Source of the DNA: Candidatus Aenigmatarchaeota archaeon
Lineage (GTDB): Archaea > Aenigmatarchaeota > Aenigmatarchaeia > CG10238-14
Direction of reading: 5' to 3'
Assembly (NCBI GenBank): GCA_014728985.1
Contig: WJKS01000015.1
Location: forward strand, 1 to 34,502
DNA length: 34,502 nucleotides
Each line of letters begins with the position of its first letter. Positions within the stretch are counted from its first letter, which is position 1. This document shows, one piece after another, positions 6,254-34,502 of the stretch. A model generated the notes under the pieces. That model was not told the DNA's origin. It saw only the letters and a list, made by a program, of their open reading frames with translations, and made no database searches. Position numbers and translations under genes: made by a program.

Positions 6254-6286
6254 TTATTTACACCTCATTCATTTGATTAACATTAT

Positions 6287-6550
6287 TTAGTTATTATTTT
6301 TCAACTTCTCAAATTTAACAGTAGCACCCTTTTCAATCTCTTTTATTTTACCAATTTTAGTTTTTAGATTGTTATCTTCCAGTAAAATTTTCAAATCATC
6401 GAAATAATCATAGAATCCGCAAGTTCTACAAAAGGCTCCTGTAAATCTGACTTTGAAATCATTTTTTTTATTCGAAACTAATTCTGCAGTTGCCACTGGG
6501 GATCTTAATTCATTAAATTCTTTAATTATCTTCTCAATATCATTTCCCAT
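6287..6550 (-). CDS. Conserved-position hypothetical protein (87 aa, CxxC) inside the oxidative-stress operon
   Basis: ORF track begins at 6589. The internal ATG at 6550 is preceded by TAGGTGATTTA: the rubrerythrin TAG stop sits inside an AGGTGA SD placed 4 nt before the ATG. Contains FCRTCGFYDYF. Confidence 0.6.
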   Translation of the reverse strand: MGNDIEKIIKEFNELRSPVATAELVSNKKNDFKVRFTGAFCRTCGFYDYFDDLKILLEDNNLKTKIGKIKEIEKGATVKFEKLKNNN

Positions 6551-6558
6551 TAAATCAC

Positions 6559-6954
6559 CTAATCCAAAGACTCCAACAATTTCTGACATGATTTCAAATG
6601 TCTTGACTCAGCTTTACCAACCCTTTCAACCCATTTGGCTATGTCTTCATGTCCCTCTTCTCTAGCTTCTTTAACAATTTTTGGATACATGTTTTCAGTT
6701 TCATCCATTTCCTTCTCTATCGATATTTTCAAAGCATCTTTTACACCATTGACTTTAACCGAACCTAGTTTTGATAAATAAAATAAAAATCCCTTGGCGT
6801 GACATTCTTCACCTTTAGCAATGCTTCTAAACATATCCGAAACTTCTGGATAACCCAATTCATCGGCCATTTCCGAGAAGAAAATATATCTTAAATTAGC
6901 TTGACATTCTTTAACAAAAGCTTTTTTTAAATTCTCTTCAGTTTTTTTACTCAT
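6559..6954 (-). CDS. Rubrerythrin-family di-iron protein lacking the rubredoxin domain (sulerythrin-like)
   Basis: Two ExxH ligand motifs (GEECHAKG, KAESRHLK) in a ferritin-like four-helix layout. ATG at 6954 is preceded by GAGGTGA; the ORF-track TTG at 6960 is less likely. Confidence 0.85.
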   Translation of the reverse strand: MSKKTEENLKKAFVKECQANLRYIFFSEMADELGYPEVSDMFRSIAKGEECHAKGFLFYLSKLGSVKVNGVKDALKISIEKEMDETENMYPKIVKEAREEGHEDIAKWVERVGKAESRHLKSCQKLLESLD

Positions 6955-9274: not shown

Positions 9275-10089
9275 ATGAATGTTCCTGATAAATTGGAAAC
9301 CCTCTATATGGAGATGAGAATCAGGAATTATTCTAGTAAAACTATAAAAAGCTACATAAAAAACAATCAAAAATTCCTTGAATTCATTCAAAAACCATCA
9401 ACTAAAGTTAATTCCAGCGACATCAAAAAATACATAAAACATCTAATAGACGAAGGAAAAAGCCCATCAAATATAAGACAGGTGATAGCTTCTCTCAGAT
9501 TCTATCACTCAGAAGTTCTTCATAGAAAATTCTTCAAAAATATCAAAAATCCAAAAATATCCAGAAAATTACCCATAGTTCTAAGTAAAAAAAGAAGTAA
9601 AAAGAATGATAGAAGTTACAGGCAATTCAAAACACAGACTAATAATCCAAATTATTTATGGGTGTGGTTTAAGGCTTTCAGAGGTAGTTAACTTGAAAAT
9701 ATCAGATAGATGTTGATAGAAGAATGTTAACAGTAAGGTCAGGTAAAGGAAAGAAAGATAGGCAAATACCGATTCCAAAATCACTAATAAATATCTTAAA
9801 ATGTTCATTTTCAAGGAGAAAGTATCTGTTCGAGGGGAGGAAAGGACATCTTTCTCAGAGATCTGTATACAAGATAGTAAAAAAAGCAGCAAAAAAAGCA
9901 AGAATAAGAAAAAATGTTTCTCCTCATACTCTTAGACATAGCTTTGCAACCCATTTATTAGAGTCAGTGACTAATCTAAGATATATCCAAAAACTCCTCG
10001 GACATTCAAAACTTCAAACAACACAAATCTATACAAAAGTATCTAAGTCTTCACTTGAAAAAATAAAGAGCCCACTAGATAGTTTATAG
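9275..10089 (+). pseudogene. XerA/XerC-like tyrosine recombinase interrupted by two +1 frameshifts
   Basis: N-terminal SAM-like domain in frame 1 (9275..~9590). KEVKRMIEVTGNSKHRLIIQIIYGCGLRLSEVVNLK is readable in frame 2. The catalytic part (HTLRHSFATHLL...LLGHSKLQTTQIYT) is in frame 3. Shifts sit at A-runs 9587..9593 and 9696..9699. Summed length is about 271 aa. Confidence 0.8.
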
Positions 10090-20191: not shown

Positions 20192-20422
20192 TTAACCAAA
20201 CATGGCGGAGAATCCGCTAATAACATCCTCTTCCTTTTTTTCTTGTATTTCAGGTTCGGGGTAATAATATTTCGGTTTTTCATATTTAGTCTCTGGACAT
20301 TTATGACACACCCATTTACCATATTTTTTTCGGATACATTTAGGACAACCAATAGTTTCACAATTGTTACATTCAATTAGTTCATCAGTTTTACTTTTGC
20401 AATTTGGGCAAAACAATTCCAT
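20192..20422 (-). CDS. Double zinc-ribbon protein (76 aa) with a ribosomal-stalk-like C-terminal tail
   Basis: MELFCPNC...CNNC...CPKC...CHKC, then an acidic linker ending EKKEEDVISGFSAMFG-stop. ATG at 20422 preferred over the ORF-track TTG at 20473. Confidence 0.6.
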   Translation of the reverse strand: MELFCPNCKSKTDELIECNNCETIGCPKCIRKKYGKWVCHKCPETKYEKPKYYYPEPEIQEKKEEDVISGFSAMFG

Positions 20423-22344: not shown

Positions 22345-22475
22345 TGCAGGGGATCGGATTCGAACCGACGAACCCACTAAGGGAATAGGTATCCTATGGT
22401 CATAATCTTGAGCTTCGACATCATTAAATCAGCGCTCAATGATTCTATCGCGTTTGACCACTTCGCTACCCCTGC
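22345..22475 (-). tRNA. tRNA-Leu (anticodon CAA), class II, with two predicted introns (22414..22444 and 22391..22406)
   Basis: 131-nt precursor. Acceptor GCAGGGG/CCCCTGC; T arm GTCGG-TTCGAAT-CCGAT; long variable arm TCCCTTAGTGGGTTC. Removing 31 nt and 16 nt gives an 84-nt tRNA with a perfect anticodon arm ATAGG-CTCAAGA-CCTAT. Confidence 0.8.
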
Positions 22476-22509: not shown

Positions 22510-23019
22510 TTAACTGATATCATTTAATTCTAATTTGAGATTTTCGACCTGAGTTTTTAGGTCATCTACCACACTATCTAATTCAGGTTTTCCTATGGCT
22601 GATTCCAATTCTTCCCTGAAACCTTTGGGTCTGATGAATTCTGCGTCCAAACTGAGGAGCTTATTATCAATCTTTTTAACACCATCTTCAATCAATTTCC
22701 TATTTTCTTCAGCTAAAACCTCAATTTCTTTTTGGACTACCATAGCATTCTTTACCATCATTGTTGTGGCCTTAAGGTCATTAAGTAGGTTAAGAACAGA
22801 ATTATATCTGTCGATTTTCACGAATAAAGGAGCGAACCTGTCTTTCTTCTTAACTTCTTCTGGTCTTCTTTTAGGACTTTTTTTAGGTACTATTTCTTCC
22901 TCAACTTCTTTCATAGCGACAGTTTTAGGAAAAGTTTCTTCTTCACCCACAGCTTTTTTAATCTCATGTATATCCGTCTTAGGTCTCTCTTCAGGTTTTT
23001 TCTTTTTGAATAAGCCCAT
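22510..23019 (-). CDS. Hypothetical coiled-coil protein with a basic N-terminus (MGLFKKKK)
   Basis: GAGGA SD 6 nt before the ATG. Lys/Glu-rich disordered N-terminal half, then APLFVKIDRYNSVLNLLNDLK and a heptad-like C-terminal region. No family assigned. Confidence 0.6.
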   Translation of the reverse strand: MGLFKKKKPEERPKTDIHEIKKAVGEEETFPKTVAMKEVEEEIVPKKSPKRRPEEVKKKDRFAPLFVKIDRYNSVLNLLNDLKATTMMVKNAMVVQKEIEVLAEENRKLIEDGVKKIDNKLLSLDAEFIRPKGFREELESAIGKPELDSVVDDLKTQVENLKLELNDIS

Positions 23020-23094: not shown

Positions 23095-23168
23095 TGCGCC
23101 AGACGGGATTTGAACCCATGCTGCAAGCTTGGCAAGCTCGTGTCCTAACCAGACTAGACTACTGGCGC
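23095..23168 (-). tRNA. tRNA-Gly (anticodon GCC)
   Basis: Acceptor GCGCCAG/CTGGCGC; anticodon arm CGAGC-TTGCCAA-GCTTG; T arm ATGGG-TTCAAAT-CCCGT. 74 nt, no CCA encoded. Confidence 0.9.
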
Positions 23169-23175
23169 TTAAATC

Positions 23176-23469
23176 TTATCCAAAAATGCCCCCGAATCCC
23201 TGCATTGCTTGATCTTCCTCTTCCTCGATTTTCTTTAATACTTTTTCTTTTGTTTCTTTATCTACTTTTTCTCCTAAATCTTTCATTAAATCTTCTGATT
23301 TTTCACAGTTTTCTTCTGTCCCTGAAATATAAACATAGTATTTATCTTCAAATCCAATTGTTTCTCCGTCTTTGAATTTTATACTAGATCTCCCTACTAG
23401 ATCATCATTAAAAAGGACATCTTTAACCTTCTGAAAGTCTGACTTTTCTATCTCATATACTAATTTCAA
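23176..23469 (-). CDS. Small acidic protein (97 aa) with a ribosomal-stalk-like C-terminal tail
   Basis: Beta-rich N-terminal domain and a Lys/Glu linker ending KKIEEEEDQAMQGFGGIFG-stop. The stop lies 7 nt upstream of the 5' end of tRNA-Gly on the same strand. Confidence 0.65.
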   Translation of the reverse strand: MKLVYEIEKSDFQKVKDVLFNDDLVGRSSIKFKDGETIGFEDKYYVYISGTEENCEKSEDLMKDLGEKVDKETKEKVLKKIEEEEDQAMQGFGGIFG

Positions 23470-23571
23470 ATAACCACCTTAACCTATTTTACTAATAACA
23501 TTCTTATATTTTTGAGTTTTTTTAGAAATAGAACTAATTAAATGTAGAATTAGAGTAAAAGAAGCAGAATT

Positions 23572-23724
23572 CTAGTTTGGGTTTTGTTTAACAACAAGAC
23601 CATAGTTTTTAAGAAGTTGCATTTTGATTTTTGGATCAATAGTCCTCTCAGTAACTACGACTCTACCAGAGTTAACTGCTTTCTTCCTCATTAACGTTAT
23701 TTCACTCTTCTTTTTCTTTGCCAT
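23572..23724 (-). CDS. Small basic protein (50 aa)
   Basis: MAKKKKSEITLMRKKAVNSGRVVVTERTIDPKIKMQLLKNYGLVVKQNPN. AGGTG SD 7 nt before this ATG; the ORF-track start at 23772 is less likely. No family assigned. Confidence 0.45.
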   Translation of the reverse strand: MAKKKKSEITLMRKKAVNSGRVVVTERTIDPKIKMQLLKNYGLVVKQNPN

Positions 23725-23824
23725 ATTCAAGCACCTATCAGAAAAATTTGTTAATAGGATAATACCCTTCATTATTAGTTATGATTACTTATAAATCTTT
23801 TGGTGATGTTTTATATAGTTTTGA

Positions 23825-23896
23825 AGCCCTGGATGGGACTTGAACCCACAACCTATGCTTTACGAGAGCATTGCTCTACCATTGAGCTACCAGGGC
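23825..23896 (-). tRNA. tRNA-Thr (anticodon CGU)
   Basis: Acceptor GCCCTGG/CCAGGGC; anticodon arm ATGCT-CTCGTAA-AGCAT; T arm GTGGG-TTCAAGT-CCCAT. 72 nt. Confidence 0.9.
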
Positions 23897-23945
23897 TTAT
23901 AGCACTATTTTATTAGTTTGTAATACTATATATATGGAAGATTAA

Positions 23946-24953
23946 ATGGAAGAAGCCTTATTATGGAATAGTGAATCTGGAAAAGCTAGATGTGAACTCT
24001 GCGCTTGGAGATGTCTAATTCCTTCGGGTAAAGCGGGTCTCTGTGGCGTTCGAGTAAATGAAAAAGGTAGACTTTATTCCAAAAATTTTGGGAAAATAAT
24101 TCAGATGGATGAACAACCTATTGAAAAAGCACCCATGTTTCATTTTTATCCTGGTTCCGAGTCTCTCTTCTTAGCATCTTTTGGTTGTAATATGAGATGT
24201 CAATTCTGTATAAATGCTGATATGAGTCAAAAGGTTGGTGCTAAAGTTAAGAAAAAAACACCTGAAGATATAATAAAATATCTCAATGAGAAAAGAATAA
24301 AATTGATTGTTTTCACTTACACAGAACCCACGGTTAATTTTGAATTTGCTTTTAAGGTTGCTAGGCTCGCTAAGAGATATAATATAAAGACTGTTTTCGT
24401 CACAAATGGCTATATGACTTCTGATGCAATCAAAAAAATCGGAAAATATTTGGACGCAGTTTCAGTCGATATAAAAGCCTCTGGGGACCCTGAATTTTAT
24501 AAAAAATATATGGGCATTGAAGACGTAGTTCCTATATTTGATGCTTTAAAAAACTTCAGAAAACATAGGGTTTTTATAGAAGTTTCAAATTTAATTGTTC
24601 CTGAAATCGGTGGTAGTAAAGAACTGAATAGAGAATTCCTGTATTGGATAATAAACAATCTTGATTCCAGTATACCTTATCATCTCAGGGGATTTATACC
24701 GTCTTATAAAATGCAGGATACCCTCCCTACATCCTTGGATAAATTAGAGGACTTTGCATCAGATGCAAGGGAAATAGGATTGAGATATATCTATATTGAT
24801 GGTCAGTTAGGTTTTGGGAGAAATAATAATACTTATTGTTACAACTGTGGTGAACTTGTAGTTGAAAGAACTGCTTCTACCGTTAAGAAATTGAACTTAA
24901 TTGGGGACAGATGTCCTAAATGTGGTTTCAAGATAGATGTAGTTATAGAATAA
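23946..24953 (+). CDS. AmmeMemoRadiSam-system-type radical SAM enzyme (PflA-like activase family)
   Basis: N-terminal CELCAWRC...GLCGVRVNEKGRLY, radical-SAM CNMRCQFC cluster motif, and C-terminal Cys pairs CYNCG...CPKCG. Confidence 0.85.
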   Translation: MEEALLWNSESGKARCELCAWRCLIPSGKAGLCGVRVNEKGRLYSKNFGKIIQMDEQPIEKAPMFHFYPGSESLFLASFGCNMRCQFCINADMSQKVGAKVKKKTPEDIIKYLNEKRIKLIVFTYTEPTVNFEFAFKVARLAKRYNIKTVFVTNGYMTSDAIKKIGKYLDAVSVDIKASGDPEFYKKYMGIEDVVPIFDALKNFRKHRVFIEVSNLIVPEIGGSKELNREFLYWIINNLDSSIPYHLRGFIPSYKMQDTLPTSLDKLEDFASDAREIGLRYIYIDGQLGFGRNNNTYCYNCGELVVERTASTVKKLNLIGDRCPKCGFKIDVVIE

Positions 24954-33661: not shown

Positions 33662-34502
33662 TCAAGTAATGCCCTGTTCTAATATCCTTCTGAAGGTTAT
33701 TCTTACCTTTCTTACTGTTATTGTCTTCTCTCCAAGAATATGATTTTCTACATTCAGTAATATCCAGAAATTGTATAGTACCACTGATACCAGTATGAAC
33801 AACAATCTAACCGTAAAGCTGGTTGAACAAGTCTTGGCACGGAATTCTTTTTTGACTCTGTAACCAGTCTCTATTCCCCATCTTTGTGGATATGTTCTAG
33901 CTACCCAGTCTGGTTCTACATCCATGTTTGTGAAGAACCCAACCAAATCACCATCCTCTGTCGGATAAATCAGTAATCTGACATCAATGTAGTTCCTGTT
34001 GCATTGTAATCTGTAGATGGTCTTCCATACATTCTTTTTAGCACATTCATCCATTATACTCATTATTTTCGCTGTTTTCTTTACTGGTGTTATCCAATTC
34101 TTCTTTCTTTTGTTGAATAGTTTGTAAACATCTATTGACTGGAATCCTCTATCCATAAGTACACAATCTATCCTTACCAATCCTTTTATGTGGTTCAGAA
34201 GGTCTTTTATCACTTTTCTCTTTGATTTGAATGTATTCATTGGAATTATGGATAAAGTGAATCTTCTTCCTCTTTCAACTATGTCAATTGAGATTATCTT
34301 GAGAAACTTATTTGTTCCAGACTTAGGTTTTCCTCTTGTGATGAATAAATCATCGTCTTTTCCATAATAAGGGATATCATGAAAATCTATTGCTAATTTA
34401 GCTTTTCCTGTTATCCTGTACATTCTTCTCACATCAAGGTAATTTTTTCTTATCATTTCCTGGAATATTTCAAGGATATCCTTCCAATTGAGTTTCTTTA
34501 TA
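33662..34502 (-). mobile_element. IS4-superfamily (ISH3-like) DDE transposase gene, 5'-truncated by the window edge
   Basis: DDE/YREK signature: AIDFHDIPYYG, CVLMDRGF, YPQRWGIETGYRVKKE. The reading frame stays open upstream of the ATG at 34456 to position 34502. IS ends cannot be defined from one side. Confidence 0.85.

Follow-up and report, generated by a model that had tools for sequence, protein, structure and literature searches.

The contig WJKS01000015.1 of a Candidatus Aenigmatarchaeota archaeon (assembly GCA_014728985.1) was analysed over its 34,502 nucleotides, referred to here as the window. It has an archaeal gene content, including topoisomerase VI A and B, aIF1A, Rio kinase, Pth2 and an S-layer protein, and a G+C content of 34.6%. 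On its minus strand lies the gene of a 97-residue protein whose C-terminal end, KKIEEEEDQAMQGFGGIFG, resembles the peptide with which the archaeal ribosomal stalk proteins aP1 and aP0 dock translation factors. The open reading frame (ORF) with a stalk-like end that had been predicted here is real. It starts with TTG at 23469, at a position where the homologues start with ATG, stops with TAA at 23176-23178 and encodes MKLVYEIEKSDFQKVKDVLFNDDLVGRSSIKFKDGETIGFEDKYYVYISGTEENCEKSEDLMKDLGEKVDKETKEKVLKKIEEEEDQAMQGFGGIFG in full. The gene and the parts of its product are as follows.

23176..23469, minus strand: gene of the 97-residue protein, a member of an unannotated archaeal family (ORF and translation)
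23475..23479, minus strand: Shine–Dalgarno-like AGGTG, 5 nt 5' of the TTG start (read from the sequence)
23260..23469, minus strand: N-terminal α/β domain, residues 1–70 (AlphaFold2 model and family consensus)
23191..23259, minus strand: long C-terminal helix, residues 71–93 (AlphaFold2 model)
23179..23226, minus strand: acidic run and tail EEEEDQAMQGFGGIFG, residues 82–97, a stalk-type docking peptide by likeness (hhalign, positional conservation and the NCBIfam aP0/L10 model)

The AlphaFold2 model of the protein has a mean predicted local distance difference test score (pLDDT) of 86.9 and consists of β1 (residues 2–7), α1 (9–21), β2 (29–34), β3 (44–49), α2 (52–62), a short strand and a single continuous Lys/Glu-rich helix (71–93, pLDDT 76–93) that leads directly into the tail. 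The N-terminal domain, which the original prediction had described as β-rich, is mixed α/β in the model (β-α-β-β-α, then the long helix); its predicted fold does differ, as had been proposed, from the helical dimerization domain of aP1. The family consensus of this domain contains the conserved motif DDxVSRQSIxxRD...GxEE. Of the homology searches that had been suggested, those for a family gave no Pfam or NCBIfam model for the protein or for 139 family members, and Foldseek against the Protein Data Bank (PDB) returned generic ferredoxin-like matches only (PII, PstA and bS6; E ∼0.01, TM ∼0.5). A profile search of PDB sequences with the family found nothing significant, and neither did a PDB sequence search with the tail alone, a query that is probably too short and of too low complexity. 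The fold class of the model is clear (ferredoxin-like α/β), without a specific relative. Three candidate identities were rejected. Membership in PII/GlnK is not supported by the Foldseek matches (E 0.012 or weaker, TM ∼0.5) and there is no Pfam P-II match in the 139 members; aEF1B (EF1_GNE) has no Pfam match at E ≤0.01 in the same 139 and is not among the top Foldseek matches; and a SAMP/TtuB ubiquitin-like protein would be β-grasp with a Gly-Gly end, whereas the fold here is ferredoxin-like and the C-terminus is F-G, with GG after F in only five of 157 tails.

The 97-residue protein is a member of a real, wide and unannotated family. A word-indexed search found 11 close homologues (62–72% identity) in which the tail is invariant, and a profile search of 1.84 billion representatives, clustered at 50% identity, gave 257 clusters at E ≤0.001 and 72 at E ≤1e-10, nearly all of them of 90–105 residues. 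The carriers are Aenigmatarchaeota, Nitrososphaeria, Nanoarchaeota, Thermoplasmata and 'Euryarchaeota' metagenome-assembled genomes (MAGs), with no cultured organism among those found; the closest relatives of the window locus are Aenigmatarchaeota MAGs. Family members are named 'hypothetical' in the databases save for two JGI labels ('cobyric acid synthase' and 'Glu-tRNA(Gln) amidotransferase subunit E-like FAD-binding protein'), which are evidently spurious. The viral collections searched contain no member of the family; a single DNA match to the family-type tail lies out of frame within an unrelated gene, and the tail type of a second carrier described below was not found there. Several variants stand apart from the common architecture. 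In a 485-residue member (P0018) a LAGLIDADG homing-endonuclease intein interrupts precisely the conserved YY|CYISG motif, a site that suggests strong constraint on the protein. Three members of 175–194 residues (P0027, P0034 and P0056) carry the N-terminal ferredoxin-like domain as a tandem duplicate with a single C-terminal tail, and the tail is missing from one family member.

The tail motif ends 158 of the 162 family sequences examined. Its consensus, A-Φ-x-G-Φ-G-x-[ILV]-F-G (where Φ is hydrophobic), is the most conserved segment of the family, which answers the question, raised with the original prediction, of whether the tail is kept among orthologues; an acidic run always lies ahead of it, and the C-terminal family consensus reads [IV]xxKIKEEE[ED]xA[AMIL]xG[FMVL]GxIFG. 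With the terminal glycine as position 0, information content is highest at A(-9), G(-6), G(-4), I(-2) and F(-1). Among the 157 tails that could be anchored, position -9 is Ala in 135, -6 is Gly in 149, -5 is hydrophobic in all, -4 is Gly in 154, -2 is Ile, Leu or Val in all and -1 is Phe in 140 (the others being Leu in 11, Ile in four, Met in one and Val in one). The final glycine is the exact end of the protein in 103 of the 157.

The original prediction held that this tail reproduces the aP1/aP0 docking peptide, and profile comparison places the two in register. When the 139-sequence family profile was aligned with Pyrococcus horikoshii aP1 using hhalign, only the last 13 columns aligned, and the alignment reached both C-termini. 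In addition, the last 30–45 positions (to 336/336) of the NCBIfam model for archaeal L10/aP0 (PRK04019.1-5) match the C-terminal 35–45 residues of four of ten members, albeit weakly (E 0.015–0.82). The aP1 sequence was checked against PDB entries 3A1Y_A and 3WY9_C; residue by residue, it and the window protein compare as follows.

Position -9: aP1 A, window protein A
Position -8: aP1 L, window protein M
Position -7: aP1 A, window protein Q
Position -6: aP1 G, window protein G
Position -5: aP1 L, window protein F
Position -4: aP1 S, window protein G
Position -3: aP1 A, window protein G
Position -2: aP1 L, window protein I
Position -1: aP1 F, window protein F
Position 0: aP1 G, window protein G

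The conserved positions of the family tail correspond to aP1 A99, G102, L103, S104, L106, F107 and G108. In the stalk proteins, the hydrophobic face of the tail and its free C-terminus bind aEF1A, aEF2, aIF5B and ABCE1; no other element is known by which the ribosomes of archaea and eukaryotes bring in each of their translational GTPases and ABCE1. The aP1 residues that touch aEF1A in the crystal structure are L100, L103, S104, L106, F107 and the carboxylate of G108, and L103S, L106S and F107S each abolish aEF1A binding (PMC4267659). NBD1 of ABCE1 is contacted by L103, L106 and F107, and an 18-residue aP1 tail peptide alone binds aABCE1 with a Kd of 3.9 uM (PMC6125642), so that the peptide is portable in principle. 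The family has the acidic stretch and the conserved hydrophobic C-terminal peptide that in aP1 ends ...LFG; the equivalents of L103, L106 and F107 are hydrophobic, and the free C-terminus lies one residue past F. Judged by alignment and conservation, the family keeps a tail that copies the docking peptide of aP1/aP0 in register, with a likeness that is confined to the tail and covers the functional residues.

A chance origin of the motif is effectively excluded. The pattern [GAS]-Φ-[GSA]-x-[ILMV]-F-G at the exact C-terminus is expected from composition in 1.1e-5 of proteins, or ∼4.5e-4 times per window, and is seen twice in this one. Among 487 predicted proteins of related loci it is carried only by the 97-residue family and by the family of the second carrier in the window, and it appeared in none of 300 shuffles of the last 30 residues of each of these proteins; a comparison with shuffled sequences of the kind that had been suggested, here over related loci, puts the motif far above chance.

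The second carrier, an unrelated protein that the original prediction had placed 2.7 kb from the 97-residue gene, also proved real and belongs to a conserved family of its own. It is encoded by the following features.

20192..20422, minus strand: 76-residue zinc-ribbon protein with four CxxC pairs, an acidic linker and the tail GFSAMFG (ORF, homologues and model)
20195..20233, minus strand: acidic run and tail EEDVISGFSAMFG of the zinc-ribbon protein (homologues and DNA pattern match)
20455-20448, minus strand: TATA-like TTTATAAA 5' of the zinc-ribbon gene (read from the sequence)

The 76 residues are counted from ATG. The model predicts a confident ribbon for residues 1–45, then a disordered linker and the tail. 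In all 17 database homologues an acidic run leads to the end [GA]F[SA][AS]MF[GNK], with a terminal Gly in all except two; the tail follows EEV[ST], also in 30 metagenome loci of the family, and F71, M74 and F75 are invariant in 18 homologues. Only the tail aligns between the zinc-ribbon and 97-residue families, and that of the zinc ribbon is even more like aP1 than that of the 97-residue protein. In 14 loci the two genes are syntenic and share a strand, the zinc ribbon lying 0.8–4.7 kb downstream.

Metagenome contigs were scanned for DNA encoding the zinc-ribbon-type tail variant preceded by GAAGA, which gave 33 loci. Thirty encode zinc-ribbon proteins, one encodes a 378-residue PAN-type proteasomal ATPase and two encode an unrelated protein of 164 residues. 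The ATPase (P0256; L039 1351-2487, minus strand, with an equivalent at L067 6008-7144) comes from a Nanoarchaeota MAG, where its NCBI name is 'AAA family ATPase [Nanoarchaeota archaeon]'. Its domains are AAA, AAA_lid_3 and Prot_ATP_ID_OB_C, and its match to Archaeoglobus fulgidus PAN spans the entire protein (E 2.5e-117). Its C-terminal end is ...DKVNKEEVSEDGFSAMFG (shorter extracts EEVSEDGFSAMFG and KEEVSEDGFSAMFG), and its tail GFSAMFG is identical to the last seven residues of the window zinc-ribbon protein. This tail departs from GLSALFG of aP1 at two residues only (L to F, L to M), and an EEVS-like element lies upstream in all three proteins. The 164-residue protein (P0257; L036 259-753, minus strand, with a further copy at L065 2-337, plus strand) ends EEATGGFAAMFG, an acidic run followed by GGFAAMFG or SGFAAMFG, and so shares the M-F-G end of the zinc ribbon and PAN. 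It has no Pfam match and a G+C content of 48–55%, and it aligns with the 97-residue family by the tail alone. Taken with the 97-residue family, the tail looks like a portable short linear motif carried on at least three further unrelated non-ribosomal scaffolds. The rigid helix that precedes it in the 97-residue protein and the flexible linker in the zinc ribbon may reflect different uses.

The 97-residue gene is embedded in a tRNA cluster, with these immediate neighbours.

23095..23168, minus strand: tRNA-Gly(GCC) (ARAGORN; Rfam, 65.6 bits)
23169..23175, minus strand: 7 nt spacer from the stop codon to the 5' end of tRNA-Gly (sequence)
23572..23724, minus strand: small basic ORF of 50 residues from ATG 23724, MAKKKKSEITLMRKKAVNSGRVVVTERTIDPKIKMQLLKNYGLVVKQNPN (sequence; relatives in L001 and L004)
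23823..23897, minus strand: tRNA-Thr(CGT), upstream of the 97-residue gene (ARAGORN and Rfam)

The 7 nt distance of the stop codon from tRNA-Gly(GCC) given by the original prediction is confirmed (gap 23169-23175). In loci of the Aenigmatarchaeota type the 97-residue gene stands between tRNA-Thr(CGT) and tRNA-Gly(GCC); the gap from the stop codon to tRNA-Gly is 0–7 nt in 16 loci and 15 nt in one further locus, and the distance from the end of tRNA-Thr to the ORF is as little as 7–46 nt in relatives. A gap of 0–7 nt leaves no room for a separate tRNA-Gly promoter. No TATA-like box is present in the 20–35 nt upstream of the window tRNA-Gly, a region of G+C-rich coding sequence. Together with the short gap, this makes a joint transcript that RNase P cuts at the stop codon the simplest reading, and the abutting tRNA-Gly conserved in 16 loci supports the mRNA–tRNA co-transcript that had been proposed. 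The 97-residue gene and tRNA-Gly are probably on one tRNA-punctuated transcript. The placement between the two tRNAs in 16 loci is also a weak link to the translation apparatus.

Further observations concern the surroundings of the gene. The 50-residue ORF lies between tRNA-Thr and the 97-residue gene, has GGTG 7 nt upstream and is conserved in L001 and L004, with no Pfam or other family match. Some stop-abutting copies of tRNA-Gly(GCC) hold introns (L005 2383-2468, L006 3086-3171 and L008 from ∼6340), and ARAGORN misses these or labels them tRNA-??? or tRNA-Leu. In a second Aenigmatarchaeota subgroup (L013, L017, L020, L021, L022 and L024, at ∼6270-6680) the 97-residue gene is followed not by tRNA-Gly but by a small ORF of 86–131 residues in five loci and 173 as listed in L021. 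This ORF overlaps the stop codon of the 97-residue gene (ATGA) in L020 and L024 and starts within a few nucleotides elsewhere, which suggests translational coupling; the longer versions end ...YK(R/K)I(E/V)P(L/Y) and have no family match. Directly downstream of the window tRNA-Gly, a 169-residue protein is encoded at 22510..23019 (minus strand) and has the same placement in at least eight loci (cluster c3); it has a basic low-complexity N-terminus, an APLFVKI(D/E)(R/K)Y motif and a coiled coil, without a Pfam or NCBIfam match. A fourth tRNA at 22345..22475 (minus strand; Rfam, 40.9 bits, 131 nt, presumably with an intron) is missed by ARAGORN; this tRNA, tRNA-Thr, tRNA-Gly and the three ORFs between them make up an array of tRNA and protein genes on the minus strand. 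On the other side, a 48 nt spacer (23898..23945) containing ATATATATA separates tRNA-Thr from a divergent radical-SAM gene (23946..24953; Radical_SAM plus Fer4_12), and this gene and the adjoining DUF7343/MarR-like membrane protein (clusters c1 and c2) are the most conserved neighbours in DPANN archaea. Farther away in the window lie two consecutive ORFs of 138 and 121 residues (9275..10089, plus strand), which resemble the N- and C-terminal parts of a tyrosine recombinase interrupted by a frame break, and a transposase-like ORF (33662..34456, minus strand).

Across phyla the neighbours vary and include lysine/leucine biosynthesis genes (in Nitrososphaeria), an HhH-GPD glycosylase, PAC2 and an AAA_17/AAA_18 P-loop (kinase-like) gene; in some loci ribosomal-protein operons are divergent or convergent to the family gene. 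Comparison of gene neighbourhoods found no functional partner that recurs across phyla.

We favour, with a probability of roughly one half, a reading in which the tail serves as a stalk-type docking peptide and its carriers are non-ribosomal clients or competitors of the translation GTPases that bind aP1, or of ABCE1. The 97-residue protein would then be a soluble, non-ribosomal carrier of the stalk peptide, and its tail would plug into the hydrophobic grooves on translation factors that the aP1/aP0 tail uses. It could act as an adaptor, tethering a factor to a partner of the N-terminal domain, or as a regulator that competes with the ribosomal stalk for the factor pool. On the tRNA-punctuated transcript, RNase Z and RNase P would release the mRNA of the protein, and its expression would be coupled to tRNA synthesis. 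We infer the binding steps, the direction of action and the co-transcription; the observations are of the sequence and how it is conserved, of synteny and of a tail that matches the stalk in register, alongside a predicted fold. The motif and its receptors are known, and in literature searches the stalk tail was described only on P0, P1, P2, aP0 and aP1 and as synthetic competitor peptides (a paper on the hibernation factor HibA is unrelated). Natural non-ribosomal carriers, a family built around the tail and a tailed PAN thus appear to be undescribed.

Several observations weigh against this proposal. At position -8 the equivalent of aP1 L100 is most often Ala in the family, and the G and S/A of aP1 are both glycines in the family tail. 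Residues 93–97, the final five of the window protein, are of low confidence in the model, with pLDDT <50. The flexible hinge, rich in Ala, Pro and Gly, that in aP1 separates the N-terminal domain from the tail and lets the tail reach factors is absent from both the model and the sequence. Genes for aEF1A, aEF2, aIF5B and ABCE1 never occur in the neighbourhoods of the family gene, the window included. In the tailed PAN, the stalk-type tail occupies the place of the canonical HbYX motif (hydrophobic residue, tyrosine, any residue), by which PAN normally docks in the 20S α-ring; this position points to another partner. Finally, the genome's own aP1 and aP0, with which the tail might be compared, are not in the window, in 68 related loci or among the 33 metagenome loci with the zinc-ribbon-type tail.

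The most probable alternative, although we consider it a good deal less probable than docking on translation factors, gives the tail another role, as a dock for a lineage-specific hub, a C-terminal degron or an amphipathic element for membrane binding or self-association. The functional diversity of the scaffolds fits such a role, and the coexistence of GFGxIFG and GFSAMFG variants in one genome would suit a tolerant hydrophobic receptor. To copy aP1 at ten positions in order would, however, be superfluous for a degron; helices that target membranes tend to be basic, but this tail always follows an acidic run; and the known receptors of the exact motif are translation factors (PMC4267659, PMC6125642).

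Somewhat less likely still, but the main rival as a mechanism, is an HbYX-like dock on the pockets of the 20S α-ring, or on cofactors of AAA ATPases, with the small proteins acting as proteasome regulators, adaptors or competitors and the aP1 likeness being secondary. The tailed PAN carries the tail exactly at the usual HbYX site, in a form identical to the end of the window zinc ribbon, and its discovery leads us to keep the 20S proteasome or another hub as an alternative partner. I-F-G, M-F-G and L-F-G are compatible with a hydrophobic-aromatic-X pattern, a salt bridge from the free C-terminal carboxylate to lysine is common to HbYX and stalk docking (PMC10349882; PMC4267659), and in L030 a PAC2 proteasome-chaperone gene adjoins the family gene. 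In HbYX docking, however, the Tyr hydroxyl bonds G19 of the α subunit (PMC10349882), and a penultimate Tyr is found in none of the 157 family tails, while the zinc-ribbon, PAN and 164-residue tails end in M-F-G. HbYX covers the last three residues only and leaves A(-9), G(-6), Φ(-5), G(-4) and the acidic run unexplained, yet these match aP1 position by position; seven further conserved positions that follow aP1 lie outside its reach. The PAN tail, GFSAMFG after EEVS, is closer to GLSALFG after EEVS in aP1 than to any HbYX tail, and no proteasome neighbourhood of the family gene recurs.

The 97-residue protein could also be a ribosome-bound, lineage-specific accessory protein that offers an extra stalk-type tail from another ribosomal site, which we regard as improbable. 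It is small and conserved, its ferredoxin-like fold is common to several ribosomal proteins (with weak Foldseek matches to bS6), and its gene is embedded in a tRNA cluster in Aenigmatarchaeota, is divergent beside an S13-S4-S11 operon in L029 and convergent beside an S8e-SRP19 operon in L031 and L032. Against this, the protein is acidic, not basic, Pfam and NCBIfam gave no RNA-binding family, a rigid helix that lacks a hinge carries the tail, ribosomal operons adjoin the gene only sporadically, and the tail also occurs on PAN and the zinc ribbon, which are clearly non-ribosomal.

That the protein is merely the genome's own divergent aP1 (P1/L12e) orthologue is largely refuted: its length of about 100 residues, acidic run and stalk tail would suit aP1, but its N-terminal domain is β-α-β-β-α rather than the four-helix dimerization domain, hhalign aligns the tail alone, there is no Ala/Pro hinge, phmmer with aP1 finds no match in related loci, and Nitrososphaeria and Thermoplasmata, among the carriers, are clades that generally have a canonical aP1. 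Both the original view that this is no simple aP1 variant and its statement that the gene lies outside an L11-L1-P0-P1 context stand, the latter for the window and for more than 35 loci, in none of which the gene is beside L10/P0.

Should the favoured reading hold, natural stalk mimics could titrate, sequester or redirect aEF1A, aEF2, aIF5B or ABCE1, perhaps in dormancy, under stress, in the host dependence of DPANN or in ribosome quality control through PAN. More tentatively, many archaea, DPANN most clearly, might use the stalk peptide as a general plug that docks non-ribosomal clients on translation GTPases or ABCE1. The clients would be the 97-residue, zinc-ribbon and 164-residue proteins and even PAN. 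They would make up a new regulatory layer in which stalk mimics tune the size of the factor pool and protein degradation is tied physically and directly to the machinery of elongation, rescue or recycling; the dosage of the 97-residue protein would follow tRNA synthesis. For the unannotated family, with its 257 or more clusters, the proposal offers a lead on function. The locus itself would be a clear-cut archaeal example of an mRNA that occupies the gap between two tRNAs and has a 3' untranslated region of 0–7 nt, which raises the question of how termination works at the extreme end of a processed mRNA.

Several known systems can be compared with the proteins described here. The 97-residue family has the β-α-β-β-α topology of small PII/GlnK-like domains, which give the best Foldseek matches, but it shares no sequence motifs with them and has no T-loop; the resemblance is one of generic fold, not of membership. 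Its gene arrangement recalls tRNA-punctuated transcripts, such as mitochondrial mRNAs flanked by tRNAs and the Escherichia coli thrU-tyrU-glyT-thrT-tufB operon, in that a protein gene lies directly between tRNA-Thr and tRNA-Gly; the present case differs in being on an archaeal chromosome, with RNase P and RNase Z as the presumed processing enzymes.

Among C-terminal docking motifs, HbYX (PAN, Rpt2/3/5, Cdc48, PbaA/Pba1-2 and Blm10) is likewise portable and hydrophobic-aromatic-X, with a free carboxylate; unlike the tail described here, it requires Tyr, spans three residues only and lacks a conserved acidic or G-Φ-G context. The tails of eukaryotic P1, P2 and P0 (...EESDDDMGFGLFD), which bind eEF2, GCN2 and ribosome-inactivating toxins, share the acidic run followed by a G-F-G...-F-x hydrophobic end, but are one residue shorter between G-F-G and F and end in D. 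Literature searches returned no natural non-ribosomal carrier. Free synthetic peptides with these tails compete for the binding proteins (PMC6162817), and this competing-peptide logic is what is proposed here for a natural protein.

The closest counterpart is the C-terminal domain of archaeal aP1/aP0 (P. horikoshii; PDB 3WY9, with aEF1A), in which an acidic run is likewise followed by A-Φ-x-G-Φ-[SG]-x-Φ-F-G at the exact C-terminus. All the hydrophobic contact positions are kept, and the tail is predicted to continue a helix. The aP1 tail has also been solved with aEF2 and ABCE1. At the level of single residues, the family favours F or M at -5 (L in aP1), G at -4 (S in aP1) and I at -2 (L in aP1). 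The main difference lies in what carries the tail: here it is attached to a ferredoxin-like domain, a zinc ribbon, PAN and the 164-residue protein, and the 97-residue family is without the aP0-binding helical domain, the hinge and the L11-L1-P0-P1 context. The ribbon–linker–tail layout of the zinc-ribbon protein is nearer to the domain–hinge–tail plan of aP1.

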